Positions 1-10,639 of a stretch of 10,639 nt of DNA are shown in pieces (the stretch's first letter is position 1; each line of letters opens with the position of its first letter). The translations under genes and the position numbers were made by a program. The notes under the pieces were generated by a model. That model worked only from the letters and a program-made list of their open reading frames with translations. It was not told where the DNA came from and did not search any database. Location of the stretch: IMG/VR virus record IMGVR_UViG_2660238215_000016, positions 1-10,639 of that record; one strand, written 5' to 3'. The stretch comes from a virus (taxonomy: Duplodnaviria > Heunggongvirae > Uroviricota > Caudoviricetes).

Positions 1-291
1 CGGAAGGCCTTCACCATATGCCATGCTGTTTGACTGCCCCGCCAGAACCACAACAAAGTAATACTCCGGGTCTCTGGTGGCGCTGATTACTGTGCCTTCT
101 CCATCCGACGGCTTCACCAACACAGGTGTGGTGACATCACCTTCCGCCGCAATGGCCTGCATCAGAGTATAAGGCGTGATGGCCACCGGGCTGCCAAATG
201 GCTGCCACCCCTCCTTCAGTTTTTGTGTCAGCTTTTCCGCAAGATCTGACGGCGACGCCGCCCTGACCACATCGTAGTGTTTAAATACCAT
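1..291 (-). CDS. Partial CDS (N-terminal part; runs off left edge): NanS-p-like phage sialate O-acetylesterase (DUF1737-like N-terminus leading into SASA/SGNH domain)
   Basis: Minus-strand translation from ATG at 291 reads MVFKHYDVVRAASPSDLAEKLTQKLKEGWQPFGSPVAIT...VVVLAGQSNSMAYGEGLP; the GQSN block is the characteristic first motif of SASA/SGNH esterases. SD-like GGAAAAGG lies 3-5 nt upstream of ATG 291; an in-frame ATG at 306 (MVEKVMVF...) is an alternative start. Not in the ORF track because it is truncated by the window edge. Family assignment from memory of prophage NanS-p proteins. Confidence 0.5.
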   Translation of the reverse strand, partial: MVFKHYDVVRAASPSDLAEKLTQKLKEGWQPFGSPVAITPYTLMQAIAAEGDVTTPVLVKPSDGEGTVISATRDPEYYFVVVLAGQSNSMAYGEGLP

Positions 292-1382
292 GACCTTTTC
301 CACCATATAAAGGAACAATAAATTCTTTTCTGATAGAGATTTAAATAAAAATACATTATTTTACAAAAAAATAATATCCATTACAAAAACATCCGATTTT
401 TTTATATTCCCGCTCATCCTGCTAATTTGTATTACAAAAAAATGAAACAACTTGAACCAAAGTGATACAAAATTAGAAAAGAAAACCCCAGGAAGACAAA
501 GAAGACGATCTTTTTCAATGAGTTACACTGATTTATTGACTATGATTTTTAGCAAAACAATCGAAAGCAATGTGTACCGAGAAGGTTAAAAGATGGAATG
601 GATAGTTATTGACACAGTGATATGCCCATCAAGCGGAATAACGTTTTCAACTGTATGGTGTAAAATAAAGTTGATAATCTGGTATCAGTCAGATGTGTTC
701 CTGCCACCCGGAAGTATTCTCACACCTGTTAACTCAGGTGTGATTATGGATAATAAGCTGCTTCCATTAACCATTTACAACGTGACACCATTTAACAGAA
801 AATTCTGGTTCCTTATCAGAAATCAAAAAGAGTGCCCCGGGAATTCAGTTAAAACAAAAATAAAATGCCATAATAGTATGTGTGTACTGATGATATGCCC
901 GTATGGATTATATAAGTAACAACATATGAATACATAACAGATAAACTATTGACCTTGAGGCTCATCCATATAAAGAAGAGCTCTCCGAAGAGGTGTGTAT
1001 TTGCATGCACATTCCTTTTTTGCTCTATGTCATGACCTCCGGCGACTCTATCCCGGCACCAGCAAACCCGCATCATTCTCGTTTCCGGTGTCTCTAAAAC
1101 CACAGCACACCTGCCCCCCCGCTGAGGGAGGGAAGCACTGTATCCGTACACTCAGCAACAGAAATACCACCTGCTCACTGCGCTACATATCAGCAACAAT
1201 TTTATACCCGAACATTATCATTCAACAGCATGGTTCACAACAACATCATAACCCAGGAAACGAGAATCAGATCAAAAAAACAGAAATTTTACATGAAAAA
1301 TACTTTTTATTAATATTGATAGCGTCGTACCACAAAATACGATGAATTATCCCTGAACTTAACATTAATGCCAGTATGTATT

Positions 1383-1402
1383 GCCCGCTGGTATCAGCGG
1401 GC
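1383..1402. other. Perfect 8-bp GC-rich hairpin (GCCCGCTG-GTAT-CAGCGGGC) about 110 nt downstream of the methyltransferase gene
   Basis: Inverted repeat read directly from sequence. No clean U-tract on either strand, so it is an RNA-structure or processing candidate rather than a canonical intrinsic terminator. Confidence 0.4.
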
Positions 1403-1513
1403 GCTTTAAGAGATCGTATTCATGACTACCTGGGAAAAAGCTATTTTACTATTGTCAGTTTTTATTGCAGCCTTATCTGTCTACTTGCTTCACAGCCTGA
1501 ACTGACCATATCT

Positions 1514-2590
1514 TTATTCATCCTTCCCGTCATCAATTGAGCATGTAAGGATGTGACTAATCTCCTTAACGGTCTGCGCAAAACGTTCTGCCTCCAGTTC
1601 AACACCAGTTGCACGACGCCCGAGCGCCATAGCTGCTTTTATGGTTGAGCCAGAACCCATGAAAAAATCCGCCACCAGGTCACCCGGACGACTGCTCGCG
1701 CAGATTATCTGCCGCAGCATTTCTGCCGGTTTTTCGCACGGATGTTTCCCTGGATAGTACTGCACCGGTTTATGCGTCCACACATCGGTGTACGGCACCT
1801 GCACCGTCACACCGAAATACCGCCGCAAATTTTTATATTCACTCAGCAGTTCCATGTACTGTCGGTTCAGCTCACTGTATGTGCTGACCAGTTGGTAATG
1901 GGACTTTTCCAGTTCTCCCCGCTGATGTTTCTCTTCTGCCACCCGGGCAAACAGCGACTGTAATTTCAGATAATCGCTTTCGTTCGGTAGCTGCCACTGA
2001 CTGGCACTGAACCAGTGCGACACCATGTTTTTCTTTCCTGTGGCATCTGCAATCTGTTTTGCTGTTATCCCAAGAGCAGCACGCGCATCACGAAAGTAAG
2101 AAATCAGCGGGGCCATCACATGCTGTTTCAGTGCCCTGCCCTTCGCCTCATCGCCATCATCTTTCGGACGATACGGCCCCTGATAATGTTCCGCGAACAG
2201 AATGCGTTCTGTGGCCGGAAAATACGCCCGCAGGCTTTCCTTGTTGCACCCGTTCCAGCGTCCGGACGGCTTCGCCCAGATAATATGGTTCAGCACATTG
2301 AAGCGTTCACGCATCATGATTTCAATGTCAGATGCCAGGCGATGGTCACAGAACAGGTAAAGACTTCCGGCAGGTTTCAGCACCCGCCAGAACTGCGCCA
2401 GACACTGGTCCAGCCACTTCAGGTAATCATCGTCGCCCTTCCACTGGTTATCCCAGCCCTCGGGCTTCACTTTAAAGTATGGCGGGTCTGTGACTATCAG
2501 ATCGACAGAGTTTTCCGGTAAGGTCTGGATAAATTCCAGGCAATCAGCGTTGATTAACTCACAACTGGATATTTTTACAGTATTAAGCAT
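1514..2590 (-). CDS. Phage-encoded DNA methyltransferase (N6-adenine/N4-cytosine amino-methyltransferase, beta-class motif order)
   Basis: 358-aa ORF with ATG start. Motif IV DLIVTDPPY near the N-terminus and SAM-binding motif I FFMGSGST near the C-terminus (order IV then I). Position downstream of Q in the late transcript matches lambdoid prophage orphan methylases. Confidence 0.85.
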   Translation of the reverse strand: MLNTVKISSCELINADCLEFIQTLPENSVDLIVTDPPYFKVKPEGWDNQWKGDDDYLKWLDQCLAQFWRVLKPAGSLYLFCDHRLASDIEIMMRERFNVLNHIIWAKPSGRWNGCNKESLRAYFPATERILFAEHYQGPYRPKDDGDEAKGRALKQHVMAPLISYFRDARAALGITAKQIADATGKKNMVSHWFSASQWQLPNESDYLKLQSLFARVAEEKHQRGELEKSHYQLVSTYSELNRQYMELLSEYKNLRRYFGVTVQVPYTDVWTHKPVQYYPGKHPCEKPAEMLRQIICASSRPGDLVADFFMGSGSTIKAAMALGRRATGVELEAERFAQTVKEISHILTCSIDDGKDE

Positions 2591-2740
2591 GGATCATTAA
2601 GCCTGTCTCTGATAGGCTCATTCTGCTTTTGCGCAAAGCAGTGGGCCTGAGGTTTGCTTGTGAACCCAACGCATGAGCAGATGGCTGGTAGGTGCCCCTA
2701 ACACCCACCAGCCGCCCATTTACCACAAATAAAAAAGCCT

Positions 2741-2938
2741 TCACTGCGGAAGGCGTCTGTAACAACCGAACTGATAGTCTGCCAGACCCGCCATAACAAG
2801 CTGGGTCAGTATTAACTGGCAGCGTTCGCGTGAAAGGTAAGTATTCTGCGCAATCTCCCCGACTGTCGCCGGGTCGGTAACGCTTAATTCATTAAACACC
2901 ACTCTGGCGGTTTCTGTCATATCCTGCTGTTTTAGCAT
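2741..2938 (-). CDS. Small hypothetical phage protein (65 aa), possibly helix-turn-helix-like
   Basis: Intact ORF with ATG start and upstream AGGGAAAA SD-like sequence, same orientation as flanking phage genes, between the tR'-like terminator and the methyltransferase. No family recognised. Confidence 0.4.
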   Translation of the reverse strand: MLKQQDMTETARVVFNELSVTDPATVGEIAQNTYLSRERCQLILTQLVMAGLADYQFGCYRRLPQ

Positions 2939-3060
2939 GTCTTTTTTCCCTTTTGGTTAACGTGACATACCAATAACTCTTGTCCAAAAAGCCAGTAAGC
3001 AGAAAGACCGGTATTCGCAACCACCAGCGCATTTAACGCCCCGTGCCGTTTTTCAGTCAT

Positions 3061-3082
3061 AAAAAAACCCGCAAAAAGCGGG
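3061..3082 (-). terminator. Rho-independent terminator immediately downstream of the Q gene (tR'-like late-operon terminator)
   Basis: On the minus strand: stem CCCGC, loop TTTTT, stem GCGGG, followed by seven T (plus-strand A-run 3061-3067). It sits about 80 nt downstream of the Q stop codon, matching the lambda pR'-qut-tR' arrangement. Confidence 0.75.
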
Positions 3083-3161
3083 CTCTTTCAAATGTCCATG
3101 TCTGCTATTCGCCTCGCGGTACAGCTTTGCGAAGCTTACCGGAATTGAAGCAGTTTTTACG

Positions 3162-3728
3162 TCAAAAAGCAATAACTTTTTTCTCTATACCAAAAGCCAT
3201 AACCATTGGTTTGTACAAAATAAATTCTGCCACCTTTAGCCAATGCTCAATGCGTCTTTCACAGGTTCTTAAACTCCATTCCGGATGTGCATCATTCAGC
3301 AGTTCAGCCATTTTGCGCTTAGTCATCCCCCGCCCCACATAACGCTGACTCAGAACATTGAGCAGCCCGGGATAACCTGCCAGTACTTCACCAATAACCC
3401 TGTCGATTATTAACGCCTCTGAATCGGTACAATGTGCCAGCCAGCTTTTTTGATTGCCGTTGATCATATCCCGCAAAAAAGCCTCAAGTTCAGGTTTGTC
3501 CAGACCCGCTTTTTTCATCCTCCGGAGCGCCTCGTTAATTGCCGTTTTTGTCAGCTTTTTAGAGGTCAGTAATTGGTTGAACATATTTCCCGTCTTACCG
3601 TCGCCAATATACGACCAACGCCCCCACATACGCAGTTTCCCCTGGATCCAGACACTTTCCAGCGTTTTCAGGCGTAAATGCTCACCGCTTTTGCCTGTAA
3701 TTTCCGGGTATATCATATTTATGCTCAC
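3162..3728 (-). CDS. Q-like late-gene antitermination protein
   Basis: 188-aa ORF directly downstream of rusA (GTGA start/stop overlap at 3725-3728; in-frame ATG at 3716 is an alternative start) and directly upstream of a strong terminator. N-terminal region LRMWGRWS...FNQLLTSKKLTK resembles the WGAW...GLITSKVKSR region of 933W/82-type Q proteins (recalled, not searched). Synteny rusA-Q-terminator is typical. Confidence 0.6.
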   Translation of the reverse strand: MSINMIYPEITGKSGEHLRLKTLESVWIQGKLRMWGRWSYIGDGKTGNMFNQLLTSKKLTKTAINEALRRMKKAGLDKPELEAFLRDMINGNQKSWLAHCTDSEALIIDRVIGEVLAGYPGLLNVLSQRYVGRGMTKRKMAELLNDAHPEWSLRTCERRIEHWLKVAEFILYKPMVMAFGIEKKVIAF

Positions 3729-4084
3729 TCACTTTCAATTTTGTAAATCTTCACGCCCAGCCGCCCACCAGAAACGAGCTGACCGCGCACAATATTGATT
3801 TCATCAAACTGCTCGTCGTCTATGAGAAGTCCGGCATGCGTCAGCGCATCCAGCGGTGCTTTCAGGATATTGTCCAGATCACGACGGCGCTTATCCGGTG
3901 GCTCTGCAATAATCTTTATCGCCAGCCTTCCGGACAGGCTTAATTTCAGCCGCTGCTGGCGAACAATAAGCGCCACAGCCCGGCGATAACGCTTTCCCTC
4001 CTCCGAGATAAAATATGTGCTGCCACGGCGTCGCCAGTAAGTGTTCACCGTCGGCGGGTAAGGTAAAACCAAATCTATGAGCAT
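3725..4084 (-). CDS. rusA: RusA Holliday-junction resolvase (crossover junction endodeoxyribonuclease)
   Basis: 119-aa ORF. LPYPPTVNTYWRRRG...PDKRRRDLDNILKAPLDALTHAGLLIDDEQ matches the RusA family catalytic core (DRRRRDLDN / D-x-L motif region); length about 120 aa as in E. coli RusA. Good SD (AGAGGTGA) 5 nt upstream of ATG. Confidence 0.9.
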   Translation of the reverse strand: MLIDLVLPYPPTVNTYWRRRGSTYFISEEGKRYRRAVALIVRQQRLKLSLSGRLAIKIIAEPPDKRRRDLDNILKAPLDALTHAGLLIDDEQFDEINIVRGQLVSGGRLGVKIYKIESE

Positions 4085-4096
4085 CAGTCACCTCTT

Positions 4097-5146
4097 TTAC
4101 CCAAGCACGCCAGTTGCAAAGGCGTGATCAAGAAAACGAAAAATTAAATCAACCTGAGAGCCATGCTTTTCTTCGAACGCCAGCGGATCCGCATGAAGCT
4201 CGTTGTGATGCTCCCGACACAGCGGTAGCGTGAAAATATCGTGAGATTTTGTCCCCATTCCGCCCTGACCATGACCAATCAGGTGATGGGGATCGTCGGC
4301 TGGCTTACCACAACACGCACACGGCTGAGTCTTCACCCAGCGTGTGTATTTCTCGTTAACCCAGCGGCGACGTTTAGGTCGTTTCATGAAAGATTCCGGA
4401 GACTCAGGATCAACGGCAATGCTGACCACCGTCTTTTCCTGTGGTGGGTTCTGTTGCTGGTGGACGTCAGGCAGTAACGCAATATTTTTTGTGCGCTGCT
4501 TCAGTATGCTGGTGGCGGTCTGCTCTCCCGGCACGATGTCGCTTTCACGGTACATTGAGCGGATTTTTTCCGCACGCACCCCCAGCGAACGACGTAATAC
4601 CGCTTCCGGTAGCGCGTCCGCCACCTGATTGCGGACCGCCCACCAGGATAATTCAGCCAAAGATAATTCACGCTCCTGCGTACCGCTTATTGCGTGACCG
4701 ATGACGTCAATCATCCATGCTGACAGGTTTTGATGAGCAAGTTGCTCGAGTGATTCGGATGTCTGGTCACGCAGCTGGTTGTCGCAGTGCCAGCACAACA
4801 CCATTGCGCCGGTACCATAACGGTGAATGACAGTTTCGCTGTGATGATAATCGCCGTGTGGCCACTGGCAGGATTTCACGTGACGCAACAGCCAGTCAGA
4901 CAATGCACCAGCACCACCAGCAGCACGAATCACCCGTGCGTTACTGAAAAACGGCAGCAATGTTTTGTCTTCCACCAGCGGCTGGCGAACGGCAGGAACG
5001 ACCCCGGACGGCAGATTACGCATGCTTTTCGGTTCCGGCTCCATCAATACCCGGGTATTGTGGAATACTGGCATGGATTCACGGCCCGGCTTAACGATCA
5101 CCAGCCCGAGTTCCGGTACCAGAACAGGTCGAAGTAATACCCGCAC
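4097..5146 (-). CDS. DUF968 family prophage protein (YdfU-like) with C-terminal Cys/His-rich HNH-like region
   Basis: 349-aa ORF, the same length as K-12 Qin YdfU from memory. C-terminus CACCGKPADDPHHLIGHGQGGMGTKSHDIFTLPLCREHHNELH is a Cys/His cluster typical of DUF968. Lies in the conserved position upstream of rusA. Confidence 0.75.
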   Translation of the reverse strand: MRVLLRPVLVPELGLVIVKPGRESMPVFHNTRVLMEPEPKSMRNLPSGVVPAVRQPLVEDKTLLPFFSNARVIRAAGGAGALSDWLLRHVKSCQWPHGDYHHSETVIHRYGTGAMVLCWHCDNQLRDQTSESLEQLAHQNLSAWMIDVIGHAISGTQERELSLAELSWWAVRNQVADALPEAVLRRSLGVRAEKIRSMYRESDIVPGEQTATSILKQRTKNIALLPDVHQQQNPPQEKTVVSIAVDPESPESFMKRPKRRRWVNEKYTRWVKTQPCACCGKPADDPHHLIGHGQGGMGTKSHDIFTLPLCREHHNELHADPLAFEEKHGSQVDLIFRFLDHAFATGVLG

Positions 5147-5147
5147 G

Positions 5148-5426
5148 TTACCTCCAGATGCGTTGCTGGAATGTGCGAGACGGACGCGGTGGGCGTTCAG
5201 AGTAAGGAAGCCTGACGGAGATTATCCAGTGACGGTAGTCGAGACTAAGGGCTTTCTTAACCTCGTATCCGCGCCTGCGGTAACACTGAATTATCCATTC
5301 AGCCTGCTCTTCAGTACATGGAGGGTGTTGGAACCATTCAGACTTGAATGCGTGAGAATACCGCTCGTGCGTGCAGGCAAGAACGGGCGAATTATCAGAA
5401 TTGTAATATTTTACGTTGCGTGCCAT
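5148..5426 (-). CDS. Hypothetical phage protein (92 aa), tightly coupled to the downstream DUF968 gene
   Basis: ATG start with GGAGAA SD about 7 nt upstream; its stop codon is 1 nt from the start codon of the 4097..5146 gene. No family recognised. Confidence 0.55.
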   Translation of the reverse strand: MARNVKYYNSDNSPVLACTHERYSHAFKSEWFQHPPCTEEQAEWIIQCYRRRGYEVKKALSLDYRHWIISVRLPYSERPPRPSRTFQQRIWR

Positions 5427-5492
5427 CGGTTTTCTCCGGTGGCACGGTGTTACTCAGCGGGAGTTCAGCCCCGCGCAAGATTGTAGATGAGT

Positions 5493-5744
5493 TTATTCTT
5501 CTGCAAAAGCTGAAAAGCCTGCTTTTATTCCGATCTCTTTCAGTGCCTGTAATGAAGTGACAAACTCACCTTCGCGCAAGATAAATCCGTCTGTCACTCG
5601 ACCATCCACAAAATTAATTAACGCAGCCCCATTCTTTCGCAAACACATAATGCGGTAATGACTAACAAGATTTCCATTTTCAACGCACACAGCATAGAGG
5701 CCATCTTCACAAAAAATTTTACGCAGTTCTTCGATGTTCATCAT
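5493..5744 (-). CDS. Small prophage protein, Rem-like (83 aa)
   Basis: ATG start with GGAAGGA SD. Length and position (between hokD and the ydfU-like gene) match the Qin prophage rem gene; assigned by synteny and length from memory, not by sequence comparison. Confidence 0.55.
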   Translation of the reverse strand: MMNIEELRKIFCEDGLYAVCVENGNLVSHYRIMCLRKNGAALINFVDGRVTDGFILREGEFVTSLQALKEIGIKAGFSAFAEE

Positions 5745-5860
5745 CAGAATCCTTCCGGATAATTAGCTCTCCCCTTTAAGGGACCATCCCTCTTATCCCT
5801 GCGCGCTACTTAAGTATTTTTGATTCTATTCCGGCGCCGTCCAGAACTTCAAACGCGTTG

Positions 5861-5891
5861 AAAATAAAAACAAAAACCCGCCGAAGCGGGT
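5861..5891 (-). terminator. Rho-independent terminator at the 3' end of the hok mRNA (fbi/terminator region)
   Basis: Minus strand: hairpin ACCCGC-TTCG-GCGGGT followed by TTTTGTTTTTATTTT, about 70 nt downstream of the hok stop codon. Confidence 0.65.
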
Positions 5892-5960
5892 TAAGTGCGG
5901 GTGCGTTGAGGATGCCTGCCACATCAGAGGTGGCGAGGGATTTCTCCCTCGCCGGGTCTC

Positions 5961-6116
5961 TTACTCCTCAGGTTCGTAAGCTGTGAAGACAGCGACCTCC
6001 GTCTGGCCGGTTCGGATTCGTACCTCGCAGAGGTCTTTCCTCGTTACCAGTGCCGTCACTATGACGGTTAAACAGATGACGATCAGGGCGATTAACATCG
6101 CCTTTTGCTGCTTCAT
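5961..6116 (-). CDS. hokD: Hok-family type I toxin (HokD/RelF-type small membrane toxin)
   Basis: 51-aa translation MKQQKAMLIALIVICLTVIVTALVTRKDLCEVRIRTGQTEVAVFTAYEPEE matches HokD as I recall it; AAGGAG SD about 9 nt upstream of ATG at 6116. Confidence 0.9.
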   Translation of the reverse strand: MKQQKAMLIALIVICLTVIVTALVTRKDLCEVRIRTGQTEVAVFTAYEPEE

Positions 6117-6173
6117 AGCCTGCTTCTCCTTGCCTTTCGGCACGTAAGAGGCTAACCTACATGTGTCTAGCAT
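5961..6173 (-). CDS. mok-like overlapping reading frame (modulator of killing) through which hok translation is coupled
   Basis: 70-aa ORF starting at ATG 6173 and co-terminal with hok (MLDTCRLASYVPKGKEKQA-MKQQK...), the same architecture as mok/hok in plasmid R1 hok/sok. Confidence 0.5.
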   Translation of the reverse strand: MLDTCRLASYVPKGKEKQAMKQQKAMLIALIVICLTVIVTALVTRKDLCEVRIRTGQTEVAVFTAYEPEE

Positions 6174-6200
6174 GAAATTGGCCTCAGATTAATGTTAAGC
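6135..6200 (+). ncRNA. Predicted Sok-like antisense RNA region (coordinates approximate)
   Basis: Placed by analogy with R1 hok/sok, where Sok is antisense to the hok leader around the mok SD and start. Here the mok ATG is at 6171-6173 and the tac-like 5' element of the hok mRNA (GCTTGAGGCTATCTGTCTCA on the minus strand) lies near 6265-6285. Promoter and ends not confidently read. Confidence 0.3.
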
Positions 6201-6291
6201 GTCTTGCAGGACGCGTAATGTTAACTGGGGCTTTTCTCTATCTGCCTTTGGTGTTCATGCCTGAGACAGATAGCCTCAAGCACCCGCAGCC

Positions 6292-6320
6292 ATTCTACTT
6301 AACTCCCGTTACCCCGCCAA
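6292..6320 (-). promoter_or_regulatory. Putative sigma70 promoter of the hok/mok mRNA
   Basis: Minus strand: -35 TTGGCG (6315-6320), 17-nt spacer, -10 TAGAAT (6292-6297), immediately upstream of the tac-like GCTTGAGGCT leader element. Confidence 0.4.
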
Positions 6321-6429
6321 TATGAAATCAGTCAGAAAGGCGATCCATAAGAATAATGAATTCTGTAAGGCAATAGTCTCACTGTCTAACATATCTTACC
6401 TGATTACTTTACAATATAATAATTCATAG

Positions 6430-7065
6430 TTAAATCAAATGAATGTCATCATCCAATAATTCATTAGTAGTAATACTACCTTTTTTGAAAAAATTTTCAT
6501 TTGCCTCAGCAATTTTTGCATCATTAACAAATTCATCACACATCCCAAAATAATGAAAAAATCTATTTAGTTTACATATTCCAATGGTATAGTGCCCTTT
6601 AGGTGTTTTGTCCACATAAACACGATTTGCTTTTATAATATGCATCTCATAATCATCTATATGTGGATGAACGATGCGAAATGATGCAGATGCAGTTGGA
6701 TAGTTTTTGCGCCGCCCCCCATTTATTACGGGTTCAAATAACACTTCATTTTTACCTTTGAATTCATTGCAGTCAGGACATACTACACATAGATTCTTAG
6801 GTTCAAAAATAAAACATAGATATTGAGATTTTGGCACAATATGCTCTATAGGAGCAGCTTGTGCAGCTCTTACCCCAATAGGCTCATGACAATATACACA
6901 TTCTAGCTTTTGTTCTTCTCTGTAATGATTTCTAATTTCTGCACGGAGAACTTGCAAATCATCATCTCCCCAGTTGGTATGCTTAAAATCTGGAGAAGAC
7001 AATTTTTTCTCAATAATATCTAATGACTCTGCGCTGAATCTAATTGGATTTTTAATTTTTGGCAT
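6430..7065 (-). CDS. HNH endonuclease, PtuB-like (downstream gene of a Septu-like ATPase+HNH pair)
   Basis: His-Me finger read from translation: CVYCHE ... EHIVPKS ... CVVCPDCNEFKGKN (CxxC...H...N...CxxC). ATG at 7065 with AGGTG upstream; the ORF track start (7074) is an in-frame GTG. Overlaps the upstream ATPase gene by 14 nt (23 nt with the GTG start). Strongly AT-rich by eye. Confidence 0.8.
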   Translation of the reverse strand: MPKIKNPIRFSAESLDIIEKKLSSPDFKHTNWGDDDLQVLRAEIRNHYREEQKLECVYCHEPIGVRAAQAAPIEHIVPKSQYLCFIFEPKNLCVVCPDCNEFKGKNEVLFEPVINGGRRKNYPTASASFRIVHPHIDDYEMHIIKANRVYVDKTPKGHYTIGICKLNRFFHYFGMCDEFVNDAKIAEANENFFKKGSITTNELLDDDIHLI

Positions 7066-8425
7066 AAATTTCACACACCTGAGATACGGAATTTACGAGT
7101 TCATTAATAGGGTCATTACTATTAACGTTTTCAAGGAGAAGCTGGAGTTGTTTTAATTCACGCCAATTATCATCTGTTACTAACTTAGCAGTCTTAACTT
7201 TTGAAAGTAAATTGAAAGCTAATCTGGCAATGTATTCATTCATAATGCCAGGGGCATCAAATAGTTCCGCAAGTTGATAGTCTGCAGACCGGTTGCTAAA
7301 GTATTTTGCTTTATAAAGATAACTTTTCGACAAAGATGTTATATAACAACCTTTATTCGGCAAATTGGATATTATTTGTGGTGAATGAGTTGCAATTATG
7401 AATTGACAACCTGAGTAAGTTAAAAATGCTTTTGTTAACATAATGATAAACTCTTCCTGCCATCGAGGATGCAAGCTTATTTCCGGTTCATCAATTAGTA
7501 TTATAGAACCATCAGTTATATGCCCTGCAATTCCAAGCAACATCACTAATAAACATTGTTCTCCCGAGCTCGCACGTTTAAGTGACATGGGACCATAGCT
7601 TTTTTTTATGAGTCGCATATCCATCAATCTCATGAAGCCAGCGTTCATAAGTTTAAGAATTGATCTAGAAAAATAATTATTCGCATAAGTCGAGCCAACC
7701 AATGTTTCACCATTGGTAAAATCGACTGACAAGGTTACAGCCCTACGTTCAGGTTCAAATCGATTAATTTCAACCAGTGCTTCGTAAATATCATGACGTG
7801 ATTCGGAGTTTAACTTTAAGAGACTCTCAATATTCTTCCTGTCAATTTTTATATTGTATTTTAAATATAACTCCTTAACTTCCGTTAATATCTCATCTGA
7901 ATATACACCAATGAAGTTATAGTCAGGAGTGTCCGGTCCGTTGTAAGTTGGTTTAAATACAAACTCTATATGGGGCTCAAAATCAATAGAATGAAAAACA
8001 TCGAGTAAATTTGCAGGATTTTCTGAATAAGCAAGTTTCTCTAGCCAACCTCTCGCTGCTGAAGATAAAAGGGATACGGCATTTGATACGCCGAAGGGGC
8101 CTTCTCCACGCATACCCACATAGCGATAATTATTTTCTTTCCTTTGGTGATTTAATGACCTACGCCCTGGAGGGAATTTATCGAATGGGCTGGTAGATAC
8201 GGCAATTAACTTTGGTGTTATTTCTCTGTCAAATAATGGATTAAAAGTTTTCAAGAAATGAACATCTTGAATACAGTCTTTAGCAATCTGAGATAACAAT
8301 CTGCTTTTTCCAACGCCATTTTTACCTACAATTACTGTAAAAATATTCGCATTATCAGAAACATCACCTTCTATAGCAAGTTTTAAGGTTCGACTATCAT
8401 GATGGGTATAATATAGTCTTTTCAT
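7052..8425 (-). CDS. ABC-type (AAA_15/AAA_21-like) ATPase, PtuA-like (upstream gene of a Septu-like pair)
   Basis: 457-aa ORF with Walker A GKNGVGKS near the N-terminus, ABC-signature-like SSGEQ, Walker B IILIDEPE and H-loop IIATHSP near the C-terminus. This spacing is typical of OLD/PtuA/AriA-type ABC ATPases. AT-rich; overlaps the downstream HNH gene. Confidence 0.85.
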   Translation of the reverse strand: MKRLYYTHHDSRTLKLAIEGDVSDNANIFTVIVGKNGVGKSRLLSQIAKDCIQDVHFLKTFNPLFDREITPKLIAVSTSPFDKFPPGRRSLNHQRKENNYRYVGMRGEGPFGVSNAVSLLSSAARGWLEKLAYSENPANLLDVFHSIDFEPHIEFVFKPTYNGPDTPDYNFIGVYSDEILTEVKELYLKYNIKIDRKNIESLLKLNSESRHDIYEALVEINRFEPERRAVTLSVDFTNGETLVGSTYANNYFSRSILKLMNAGFMRLMDMRLIKKSYGPMSLKRASSGEQCLLVMLLGIAGHITDGSIILIDEPEISLHPRWQEEFIIMLTKAFLTYSGCQFIIATHSPQIISNLPNKGCYITSLSKSYLYKAKYFSNRSADYQLAELFDAPGIMNEYIARLAFNLLSKVKTAKLVTDDNWRELKQLQLLLENVNSNDPINELVNSVSQVCEIYAKN

Positions 8426-8481
8426 TTTATTTTTCTCTCATTAAAATGCTCTTAATTAAGAATACCTATGCCTTTAACAGG

Positions 8482-8510
8482 CTCATAGTTATGATTTGTG
8501 ATGCTTTCAA
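8482..8510 (-). promoter_or_regulatory. Putative sigma70 promoter for the ATPase-HNH operon
   Basis: Minus strand: -35 TTGAAA (8505-8510), 17-nt spacer, -10 TATGAG (8482-8487), about 55 nt upstream of the ATPase ATG, in an AT-rich leader. Confidence 0.3.
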
Positions 8511-8809
8511 AAGGGTATGTAACTAAGTATTGAACTCTACACCTAAGATTCTAAGATTTTTAAATTAAAGTAGTTAAACATGCTTTTGATTGTACTCATT
8601 CTATGTCCATCGTTGCTGCATGTCTAGATATCGTGCCCCGCTATTGTTATGTAATGATATGATGGACGCCCTGTCTGAAGCAGCCAGTGAAATATTTTTA
8701 CTGTCTGCGTTTTCTACAGGAGTAAATCACATGAGCACAATCAGAGTTGTTGGTATTGATATTGACCTGTGCCCAATTTTTTGAGACATATATTGGTACG
8801 CTCTTGGCA

Positions 8810-8831
8810 CAGGGCTGCTGCTGCAGCCCTG
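8810..8831. other. Strong 9-bp hairpin (CAGGGCTGC-TGCT-GCAGCCCTG) immediately downstream of the recombinase fragment
   Basis: Perfect inverted repeat read from sequence; no adjacent U-tract. May be a terminator-like structure or a recombination/attachment-site remnant. Confidence 0.4.
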
Positions 8832-8837
8832 ACAGCT

Positions 8838-9083
8838 TTAGACTTCGATCGATTCAGAGATCTCTAATGCATCATCAACTTCTATACCCAGATAACGAAC
8901 TGTGCTTTCCGTTTTCTTATGGCCCAACGGAAGTTGGATCACCCGGAGATTCTTAGTTTTCTTGCAGACAAGGCAAGGTTTTGTTCTTCTCATGGAATGT
9001 GTGCTGTAAAGCGAATCTTCGAGACCAAGCTTTTCTCCCCCCTATGAAAGATTCGGTTATATTGCAGGATTGATATGTGTTGG
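8838..9083 (-). pseudogene. C-terminal fragment of a tyrosine recombinase/integrase (truncated remnant)
   Basis: Minus-strand frame translates to ...FHRGGEKLGLEDSLYSTHSMRRTKPCLVCKKTKNLRVIQLPLGHKKTESTVRYLGIEVDDALEISESIEV*, carrying the C-terminal catalytic signature H-x-x-R ... LGH ... T-x-R-Y. Only about 80 codons are open (stop at 9084-9086), and a full-length integrase cannot fit before the 280-aa gene, so it is a truncated relic. Different frames in the neighbouring 8953..9135 and 9206..9406 ORFs are consistent with decay. Confidence 0.45.
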
Positions 9084-9463
9084 TTAGTACCGACCCGAGA
9101 TCGGAACAAGTAGTCTTTACTGCGTAAATTGCCAAGCTTTATCAATGCAGAAACAGCTTCTCTTGTCCCTTTGGTTATCTCAAATTGGATAGGACTGCCA
9201 GTTTTTCAGTTGCAGCACCGTAGCTCTGCTTGAAACCGAGCTAAATCACGCGTTTTACCTTCCAGTTCAAGCCGGATTTGGAGCCCCCAGATATGAGATA
9301 TCTGAAGTGGTCTTTTTGGGCCTATGATACTGTCTTTGTTCCTCGGTGACGTATTCATACTCAAATCTCCTGCAATGTGGAAGATTTGAGTATGGTTGTC
9401 TCTCAAGAGCGAAATAGGTCAACTATAACTAGTTGTTGTGCATGTACGAATTCTGCCAATTAA

Positions 9464-10306
9464 TTATTGACAATAAAAAATTCTGGAATGTTCGAAATCA
9501 TCATATCGAATTATAATCTGGTTGACTGCATCTATTGTTGGCGCCATTTCAGTTATAATATCTCGATAACCTAAAGAGTTAAATACATTTACTAAGGCCT
9601 CACACCGCAGGCCAATAGCAATTACGACATTATAAATTGCCAGCCGTTTATTTTCTTGTTTAACTGCAAGAGTGAGTTCGATAGCAGTAGTTTTATCGCT
9701 TTGGATTGCATTATATAGAGATACTATATTTGCCATATCATCAGAGAATGTATGTATTGAATCACAAAGAGGGACGTAATAGGCATGATAGTGTGTTTCC
9801 CAGCCAATTACTTCGAAAAGCTTTTTGGTTCCAGGATATTCAGGTGTATTTGGCCACAATCTATTAAACATATCAGTTAGCTCTTTTCCGATACGAATCC
9901 TTTCATCTGCTGCTGGATTAGTCATTTCTTTGGATTTTAAACACTCCAGCCACCGTTTCCCATTACTATGAACTAATTTCTTACTACCCTTGAGTAATGC
10001 TTGTGCATTTTTTCCATCATCAATTGCTATATAAAATTGATTGGCAGCCTGTTCCATTATAACTCTAGTTAATACTTCCGATGCTGAAAAGGCTCCGGTA
10101 CTCAAAGAAAATATAGCCTGATTACTAAGTTCATTCAGTACATTAAAGTAATGTAAAACCATCAATTTTTGTTCCACCCCCTTTAGGTTATCTATTTTAT
10201 CTTTATGCCTCTCAAATTTCGCATGGATATATTTATTTATCGCGGCTATTTTTTTTACATCTTCGTCGAAATCAAACGGGCAACGTCCAAACGATTTTTT
10301 CCTCAT
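9464..10306 (-). CDS. Hypothetical protein (280 aa), unrecognised family; accessory/defence-island cargo
   Basis: Long intact ORF with ATG start, near-consensus SD (AGGAGG, 6-nt spacing) and a perfect -10 TATAAT at 10345-10350 upstream. AT-rich like the ATPase/HNH genes. No motifs I can assign with confidence. Confidence 0.75.
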   Translation of the reverse strand: MRKKSFGRCPFDFDEDVKKIAAINKYIHAKFERHKDKIDNLKGVEQKLMVLHYFNVLNELSNQAIFSLSTGAFSASEVLTRVIMEQAANQFYIAIDDGKNAQALLKGSKKLVHSNGKRWLECLKSKEMTNPAADERIRIGKELTDMFNRLWPNTPEYPGTKKLFEVIGWETHYHAYYVPLCDSIHTFSDDMANIVSLYNAIQSDKTTAIELTLAVKQENKRLAIYNVVIAIGLRCEALVNVFNSLGYRDIITEMAPTIDAVNQIIIRYDDFEHSRIFYCQ

Positions 10307-10344
10307 ATATTCCTCCTGTTTTACAATCTCCCATAAGTTGGAAA

Positions 10345-10350
10345 ATTATA
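10345..10350 (-). promoter_or_regulatory. Putative -10 element (TATAAT) of the promoter for the 280-aa gene
   Basis: Perfect TATAAT on the minus strand about 40 nt upstream of the ATG; the candidate -35 (TTATTT, 17-nt spacer) is weak. Confidence 0.35.
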
Positions 10351-10568
10351 CACTGGAGATTACCTATAAATAACTGCGCACGATAGCTAGTCAGTGCAAG
10401 AAGTACAACCAAGTGAACGGTGCGTATCAGATACCTAGCTTAAAGTTCGCGATAGCCGTACTCTGTGTATTAGCTCAGACATTACCTGACAGGTTGAGTA
10501 GATAGAATCGAATCAAAGCTGACAGTCTGGTTTGGACTGTGGGGTCAACCGATGGATGCAACACACAG

Positions 10569-10639
10569 TGAACCGCCCCGGAAATCCTGGAGACTAAACT
10601 CCCTGAGAAAGAGGTAAACAGGATGACTAAAAATACTCG
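10569..10639 (+). mobile_element. Left end (terminal inverted repeat and leader) of an IS3-family insertion sequence, IS629/IS1203-like; continues beyond the window
   Basis: TGAACCGCCCCGGAAATCCTGGAGACTAAACTCCCTGAGAAAGAGGTAAACAGG followed by ATGACTAAAAATACTCG matches, from memory, the IS629/IS1203 left terminus and orfA start (MTKNTRF...). IS3-family ends begin with TG. Confidence 0.7.
10623..10639 (+). CDS. Partial CDS: IS3-family transposase OrfA, N-terminus only (MTKNT...)
   Basis: ATG at 10623 preceded by GAGG SD inside the IS left end; truncated by the window edge. Confidence 0.6.

Follow-up and report, generated by a model that had tools for sequence, protein, structure and literature searches.

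A Septu-bearing island between the replication genes and hok/sok of a lambdoid Escherichia coli prophage

The island and its three modules

The DNA analysed here is a 10,639 nt stretch of tailed-phage sequence (IMG/VR virus record IMGVR_UViG_2660238215_000016, positions 1 to 10,639), hereafter called the window. A chromosomal region of Escherichia coli strain OkiPb01713 is 100% identical to it, save one extra insertion sequence (IS) copy in that strain, and E. coli strain 2013C-4974 is 99.9% identical. The annotation of OkiPb01713 gives the gene order iraM, DNA methyltransferase, DUF1133, RusA, DUF968, rem and hokD, which is the late-early region of a lambdoid prophage. Past hokD follow an HNH endonuclease, an AAA ATPase, a frameshifted tyrosine recombinase, a DUF5677 protein and an IS3-family element. 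Our subject is the island at 6358-10568, from upstream of hokD to the IS element. In brief, the island is of a known kind, an allele of a prophage defence hotspot, made up of a Septu pair, a candidate gene and a dead mini-recombinase, and later truncated by an IS. The four genes named in a first-pass annotation of the window (HNH, ATPase, recombinase pseudogene and a 280-aa open reading frame) are all present on the minus strand. The features are listed in Table 1.

The island differs strongly from the backbone in base composition. The first-pass annotation had estimated by eye that GC content drops at about 6350 from a backbone of about 50%, and the computed values confirm a large drop. The backbone at 1514-6173 has a GC content of 0.504, and the whole island 36.6%. 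A sliding window gives about 0.50 at 1600-6200, 0.29-0.38 at 6200-8600, 0.44 at 8600-9400 and 0.35-0.39 up to 10400, that is, a discontinuity between backbone and island. In 400-bp windows GC is 0.42-0.56 in the backbone versus 0.31-0.44 in the island, and the two distributions hardly overlap. GC at third codon positions (GC3) is 0.21 for ptuB, 0.28 for ptuA and 0.27 for the DUF5677 gene, versus 0.48-0.67 for the backbone genes with the exception of rem. Within the island, the Septu module (0.345) and the DUF5677 module (0.367) enclose the recombinase module (0.448), which had rightly been described as a more GC-balanced relic at about 8840-9400. It should be noted that rem (5493-5744) has a GC3 of 0.345, far under its backbone neighbours, though it is a member of the conserved flank.

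The ptuA and ptuB genes lie on the same strand with ptuB downstream, and overlap by 14 nt. PtuA keeps the Walker A motif GKNGVGKS (K40), the signature SSGEQ at 286-290, the Walker B residues D312/E313 and the H-loop histidine H347, as read from the translation and an alignment to PDB sequences. PtuB keeps, in its translation, the Cys4 residues C56/C59/C96/C99 together with H75, N91 and N100. Judged by its sequence, ptuA-ptuB is a Septu type I system, apparently intact and probably functional. The PDB matches of PtuA are 8ee4 (E 3e-7), the retron Ec78/Ec83 ATPases (about 1e-9 to 1e-10) and AriA chains, and they cover C-terminal ATPase motifs only; PtuB gave no match among PDB sequences. Outside E. 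coli, the Septu pair has its nearest relatives at 90% and 85% (Klebsiella variicola) identity, followed by Dickeya (70%) and by Cronobacter and Pseudomonas (60-66%). The surroundings of these relatives are typical of defence genes: some are found beside Mrr/VspR genes, some beside a GTPase conflict system with DUF4238, and some at one end of a prophage.

The DUF5677 protein matches its Pfam family and nothing in PADLOC or NCBIfam. An exhaustive HMMER search of 1.8 billion proteins gave 54 representative homologues. Their alignment conserves E77, R81, E85, N89, S183, H185, D190, N193 and E218, and the AlphaFold 2 model is all alpha-helical with a pLDDT (predicted local distance difference test) of 92. 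We rejected the HEPN motif R-x(4-6)-H for this protein: R81 is followed by E85/N89 and no histidine, and H185 is preceded by (D/N)-S, not by arginine. A 221-aa metagenomic protein (P0006) is 93% identical to the DUF5677 protein over 32% of the query and carries PF02677; a chimeric contig could account for it, or else a fusion.

The recombinase gene is a relic. Relative to intact copies of 194-200 aa, it has an 82-bp deletion, which takes the box-I arginine region, plus 1-bp indels that shift the frame. Because this region is deleted and the frame is broken, the relic does not pass as a catalytic tyrosine recombinase; its sequence marks it as a descendant of the Phage_integrase family and not as a functional member.

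Table 1. Features of the island and its borders (positions in the window).
Feature	Position	Strand	Basis
hokD toxin gene, a conserved backbone gene on the left side of the slot	5961-6116	-	RefSeq annotation of the 100%-identical locus; list of open reading frames
hok leader / sok antisense region	6111-6285	-	Rfam RF01794 sok, 118 bits, E 4e-27
hok-promoter-like site TTGGCG-17-TAGAAT; backbone continues to 6357	6292-6320	-	Consensus scan; homology with about 500 genomes
Septu module: ptuB, ptuA and 370-bp upstream spacer (34.5% GC)	6358-8795	-	Left junction; right edge where integrase-module homology starts (8796-8805)
ptuB, HNH nuclease, 211 aa	6430-7065	-	PADLOC PtuB PDLC00325, E 1.1e-83; Pfam HNH above cutoff
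ptuA, ABC-type ATPase, 457 aa	7052-8425	-	PADLOC PtuA PDLC00283, E 1.2e-165, residues 2-455; Pfam AAA_21 2e-20, AAA_15 1e-16
Promoter-like site TAGACA-17-TAGAAT (10/12), candidate, about 170 nt upstream of ptuA	8598-8626	-	Consensus scan
Short tyrosine-recombinase module, decayed (44.8% GC); pseudogene 8838-9358	8796-9413	-	Constant ends in 8 independent contexts; frameshift and internal stop annotated
H half-site (GTACGCTCTTGGCACA) of the border palindrome, coinciding exactly with the Septu/integrase module border	8796-8811	+	15/16 to H consensus
Hairpin covering the Shine-Dalgarno sequence and the start codon of the integrase, arms of 13 nt	9356-9394	-	Inverted-repeat search
DUF5677 module (36.7% GC), upstream end cut by IS	9414-10568	-	87-89% identical to cargo of a P2-like prophage hotspot; 57 E. 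coli genomes
DUF5677 protein gene, 280 aa, candidate single-gene defence protein	9464-10306	-	Pfam PF18928, E 3e-9
Left end of IS3-family (IS629/IS1203-like) element, secondary insertion	10569-10639	+	Annotation of identical locus; relatives list IS1203; intact copies

Two further observations concern the neighbouring DNA. A second low-GC patch (0.405, down to 0.34 at 200-1000) lies at 1-1513 of the window around the anti-adapter gene iraM, which is located at 593-919 on the plus strand, opposite to the phage genes. We read this patch tentatively as a further insertion of the moron type in this prophage. In OkiPb01713, a second IS3-family copy (L001 14006-15219) lies between rem and hokD at about window 5953-5962 and has no counterpart in the window, which therefore stems from another, closely related strain.

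A variable slot in lambdoid prophages

The rem-hokD flank is found in 1829 of 5426 complete E. coli genomes (coverage at least 80%). Septu DNA is present in 19 of the 5426, each time with the whole island. The first-pass annotation had described a cargo island, and an accessory status is borne out: the island is in 19 genomes, the flank in 1829, and the island is not conserved core. In a phage database the hok/sok flank alone was matched, and the island was absent.

The position upstream of hok is filled differently in other prophages. The window, CD45 (L002) and locus L005 carry Septu, the integrase relic and DUF5677. With identical flanks, locus L006 carries a DUF262 protein and L007 a DUF4145 protein and others. 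In locus L009 the slot holds an intact short integrase and PD-T7-1 (PADLOC E 7e-157). The slot of prophage ML775 (L003) encodes a pair of proteins, a Beta_protein and an sce7726/cll protein, with matches to the PADLOC PD-Lambda-2_C and cll models; the pair resembles part of a gop-beta-cll or PD-Lambda-2 system. In a lambdoid prophage of Cronobacter sakazakii the equivalent position, directly between lambda-P and RusA/Q, holds a PtuA/PtuB pair of 65% identity, without integrase and without DUF5677. Different cargo is thus found at one position between conserved genes, and it includes known defence systems (Septu, PD-T7-1, beta/cll).

Comparison with about 500 genomes places the left junction at 6357/6358, about 37 bp upstream of the hok promoter, and homology ceases after 6357. 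At this point the window reads AAGAATAAT followed by GAATTC, whereas AAGAATAAT is followed by AGCAAGACAATAAATCGCC elsewhere. Compared with ML775 the junction falls at 6297 instead. The left edge had been set at about 6330-6350; its exact position does not hold, but the start just upstream of the hok promoter does. In ML775 (L003 15925-18240) the slot junction, at the equivalent of 6297, lies within the hok promoter region, and the hok promoter of that prophage may be altered there. Loci L006, L007 and L009 share an extra conserved stretch to the right of the 6357-equivalent junction, starting with AGCAAGACAATAAATCGCC (e.g. L007 6031-6120). It encodes an annotated 29-aa open reading frame, and the Septu island takes its place in the window.

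The right end of the island is seen in the intact prophages of CD45 and E2348/69. Here, island DNA runs about 55 bp beyond the equivalent of 10568, and backbone homology returns about 25 bp further. Beyond DUF5677 these prophages carry DUF977 and DUF1627 relics, then replication protein P and a DnaT-like O protein, and further along YdaT, cro/cI-type regulators, dicB, an exonuclease and the prophage integrase. Based on this gene order we place the island between the replication module and hok/sok-rem-nin.

The element at 10569, of which the window holds only 71 nt, belongs to the IS3 family: the annotation of the identical locus gives a transposase of this family with programmed frameshift, and IS1203 is listed for a close relative. 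The boundary 10568/10569 is the IS insertion point and not the natural edge of the island. Since the intact copies read through this point, the IS is secondary, a later truncating event and not the boundary of the island insertion. The first-pass annotation had extended the island to an IS629-like element; the island does abut an IS3-family element, but the IS is no natural boundary. Past the IS, the sequence of OkiPb01713 matches CD45 (L002) 27056-27659, the 3' part of the prophage integrase beside tRNA-Ser. As the sequence resumes within the integrase gene of the CD45 prophage, approximately 8.2 kb of early genes are gone in OkiPb01713.

The three modules are distributed separately, in agreement with the mosaic and stepwise acquisition suggested earlier: Septu DNA is in 19 genomes, the short integrase in 942, and DUF5677 in 57, including P2-like prophages. 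Of these 57 DUF5677 modules, 19 are lambdoid-type (at least 99% identical) and 38 P2-type (about 90%). In a P2-like prophage, the tail-fibre/tail-sheath hotspot carries an 88-90% identical DUF5677 gene followed by an intact copy of the short recombinase, and window 8874-10571 aligns to this hotspot at 87-89% identity.

DUF5677 and the recombinase are adjacent and co-oriented both in the window and in the P2 hotspot, and DUF5677 is among the domains statistically enriched beside small serine recombinases in Bacillota (Andersen et al. 2026, PMC13552941; preprint PMC12632615). An imperfect 40-nt inverted repeat (31/40; 8617-8655 and 10359-10398) also brackets the pair. It scores 21.5 against a shuffle mean of 13.7 and maximum of 21.0, and 0 of 60 dinucleotide shuffles reach it; its right arm is immediately upstream of what is probably an extended -10 promoter of DUF5677. 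The two genes might on these grounds form a dedicated two-gene unit, for instance a recombinase-switched or phase-variable one, which we hold to be extremely improbable. In another P2 prophage DUF5677 stands alone with a 35-codon integrase stub, a 53% identical DUF5677 homologue has no integrase nearby, and the integrase lies beside many unrelated genes; we therefore rejected an obligate integrase-DUF5677 pair. Moreover, the left arm of the inverted repeat is missing from the P2-type copies, and in the lambdoid copies examined the integrase is dead and DUF5677 intact.

The island has moved between prophage backbones. In E2348/69, segment 6125-10571 is 99.87% identical to the window and the adjoining backbone only 86-90%, with the crossover in hok; in CD45 high identity begins at 3743, i.e. 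at a different crossover. No direct repeats, either att sites or a target-site duplication, pair the two island ends in the intact CD45 copy, so that the alignment with related prophages proposed earlier did not reveal a target-site duplication at the junctions. The island copies in CD45 and E2348/69 carry the same integrase lesions as the window. Because the compared copies share these lesions, the block spread after the recombinase had decayed. Crossovers that vary within conserved flanks, the absence of end repeats and a recombinase already dead together argue for homologous recombination between related prophages, or for phage-borne spread.

The first-pass annotation had proposed another origin, in which the island is an integrative element put next to hok by its own tyrosine recombinase, since decayed. 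There is indeed a tyrosine recombinase pseudogene within the island, with a GC content unlike that of its neighbours. We nevertheless find this origin very unlikely, and the sequence of recombinase-mediated insertion and then decay is not upheld. The relic is internal, not at the island edge, and its family, at about 200 aa, lacks most of the N-terminal DNA-binding domain. The same slot is filled without a recombinase in other phages (DUF262, DUF4145, beta/cll, and Septu alone in Cronobacter). With neither an edge integrase nor paired end repeats found, an integrase-driven integrative island was rejected.

The short recombinase and its border palindrome

The relic belongs to a widespread family. 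Intact relatives give a PF00589 match of E 1e-17, and all six catalytic residues (R, K, H-x-x-R, H/W and Y) stay the same throughout Gamma- and Betaproteobacteria. In these two classes we found at least 547 species-level matches with 60-98% identity. Among E. coli genomes, the integrase module of about 700 bp is present in 942 of 5426 (17%), on chromosomes and plasmids. Its ends are constant in eight contexts and correspond to window 8796-8805 and 9411-9413. Among its neighbours in E. coli are PD-T7-1, HEC-08 (a HEPN defence gene that has been validated), a restriction endonuclease, genes of the dynamin family and a reverse transcriptase. Across species, the open reading frames closest to the integrase match PADLOC models for ThsA, SIR2, LmuA, GajA/B, Old, DRT, Avs, NsnA, PD-T4-2 and MADS.

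A hairpin covers the Shine-Dalgarno sequence and start codon of the integrase. The intact E. coli copies have perfect 15-nt arms (e.g. L009 6565-6603). Compensatory changes preserve the hairpin ahead of the integrase start (L017-L076) in Providencia, Edaphovirga, Pseudomonas and an alphaproteobacterial metagenome-assembled genome.

Cassette borders near such integrases carry a 24-bp palindrome, GTCCGCT..GTGCCA..AGCGGAC, which we call H, frequently with an adjacent 45-nt element, ACATTACTAACA...GGGAGCAGGTCAG. H and the adjacent element lie at the borders of single-gene cargo near the integrase at L009 8548-8656 and 9764-9787 and at L004 7194 and 9602. They are also found at L008, L010, L011, L013, L016 and L017-L031, and in several enterobacterial genera. 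The H/E element is found in 1019 E. coli genomes; as the median is one copy per genome, it is not a generic repeat. In the window, the 65-bp H/E element is absent but for the half-site at the Septu/integrase border, whose score of 14 exceeds the highest background value, 10, among 300 windows of the backbone.

Based on these observations, one may ask whether the short recombinase and H form an integron-like system that assembles defence cassettes site-specifically. The island would then consist of Septu and DUF5677 cassettes flanking the recombinase, and the array would later have moved between prophages by homologous recombination, and the recombinase would have decayed. Several observations point in this direction. 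The module has constant ends in all eight contexts, with the H half-site exactly on one border, and the PD-T7-1 unit of L009 (6607-8571) is met again in another strain, where homology spans exactly from H to the next H. The neighbouring unit, a 314-aa gene, is also bounded by H and is 99% identical between L008 and L009. The number of genomes with H/E (1019) is near that with the integrase (942), H occurs at integrase loci of several enterobacterial genera, the catalytic residues are invariant, and the flanking genes match many unrelated defence families.

Other observations count against such a system, and we consider it a tentative idea that is rather unlikely to hold. Recombination by the short integrase at H is putative, and H could simply be a terminator common to these loci, or a short stretch of homology on which phage recombinases act. 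There is a single H half-site in the window, and the other borders there are degenerate; Septu and DUF5677 are also found without the integrase. Moreover, the integrase is not of the IntI type: the NCBIfam IntI models give E of about 1e-3, far under cutoff (17-18 bits versus cutoffs of 265-435), and the proteins have 194-200 aa versus about 320 aa. We therefore rejected an identity as integron integrase IntI.

In its widest form the idea would be that short recombinases, with translation occluded by the hairpin, and the 24-bp palindrome make up an undescribed integron-like platform shuffling single defence cassettes among lambdoid and P2 hotspots, islands and plasmids, with DUF5677 as a new single-gene defence protein. 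We regard this as doubtful. Of all parts of our analysis this one alone might be novel, and it concerns mostly DNA beyond the window. In a literature search that did not cover subscription journals, we found no description of the proteobacterial short tyrosine recombinase family, no paper mapping the lambdoid slot from the replication genes to hok/sok, and none naming the RefSeq accessions of the island proteins.

Interpretation and comparison with known systems

We suggest that lambdoid prophages of the Rac/Qin type have a variable slot for defence genes, and that the island is the cargo of this slot. The cargo would be a mosaic of three modules of separate history: the Septu genes ptuA-ptuB, a dead tyrosine recombinase of about 200 aa, and a DUF5677 gene that the P2 tail-gene hotspot also carries as cargo. 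The block probably spreads passively, either carried along by the prophage or exchanged through homologous recombination in the flanking conserved phage sequence, and not by its own recombinase. An IS3-family element would later have inserted about 55 bp from the upstream end of the island. In the identical strain, early genes for replication, immunity and recombination, about 8.2 kb in all, appear to have been lost in connection with this insertion, leaving a grounded remnant that keeps its defence cargo. In the lysogen, by analogy with the Septu family, the PtuA ATPase and the PtuB HNH nuclease would assemble into a complex that cuts invading phage DNA, and DUF5677 probably adds a second, independent protective function. 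Taken as a whole, a swappable defence-slot allele with a three-module mosaic, homologous exchange and a later IS cut, we consider this account likely.

Some points weigh against it. The right natural junction is taken from other strains, and the window stops inside the IS. The promoter and terminator scans of the region gave counts not over shuffled expectation, and the promoters of the island are consensus matches only. Anti-phage activity of the PtuAB pair and of DUF5677 is predicted by analogy. The one DUF5677 open reading frame tried in published work, a homologue from Bacillota, was assayed in E. faecalis with six phages and was not among the five protective ones. Finally, the module borders bear remnants of the cassette-bounding palindrome, and a site-specific step may have taken part in the original assembly of the island.

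By itself the island is a further example of prophages with swappable anti-phage cargo. For annotation, its value is that a probably functional Septu system and a candidate DUF5677 gene are placed in prophages of pathogenic E. coli, including the enteropathogenic strain E2348/69. It also shows a grounded, IS-truncated prophage remnant that has retained defence genes. If the recombinase and the border palindromes do mobilise single cassettes, this would offer a concrete mechanism by which defence genes pass from one hotspot to another, unrelated one. Searches for new defence genes in Proteobacteria would also gain an inexpensive genomic marker, complementing the small serine recombinase marker for Bacillota.

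Septu type I, a PtuA ATPase with a PtuB HNH nuclease, was reportedly described by Doron et al. in 2018. The pair in the window shares with it the two-gene operon, in which an ABC-type ATPase is followed by an overlapping HNH nuclease, and the full-length PADLOC matches. PtuA proteins with solved structures are only distant sequence kin of the PtuA in the window, and no retron is attached here. The hairpin over the integrase start resembles the protection against read-through known from IS transposase genes.

Integrons likewise combine a tyrosine recombinase with an adjacent cassette array, with imperfect palindromes at the borders. Here, in contrast, the recombinase is a 200-aa non-IntI protein, the cassette genes stand in both orientations with their own upstream regions, and an attI/attC structure and recombination are only putative.

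The defence hotspots of P2-like phages and P4 satellites also have a fixed position between conserved phage genes and variable, mostly defence cargo. Exchange by homologous recombination has been proposed for them (Rousset 2022, PMC9122126; Vassallo 2022, PMC9519451; NAR 2026, PMC13586616). The P2 tail-gene hotspot shares the DUF5677 module found here. The present host, in contrast, is a lambdoid prophage, with the slot between the replication genes and hok/sok-nin; some systems are merely mentioned as sitting in lambdoid phages (Vassallo 2022, PMC9519451).

The small serine recombinase markers of Andersen et al. (2026) likewise consist of a small recombinase gene beside highly variable defence cargo. 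Defence-marker recombinases already published are these small serine recombinases and Bacteroidota tyrosine recombinases, and the tyrosine recombinases tried there (Bacteroides tsr25 and a Clostridia relative) were not reliable across phyla (PMC13552941; PMC12632615). The recombinase found here differs from the markers of Andersen et al. in being a tyrosine recombinase of about 200 aa from Proteobacteria.

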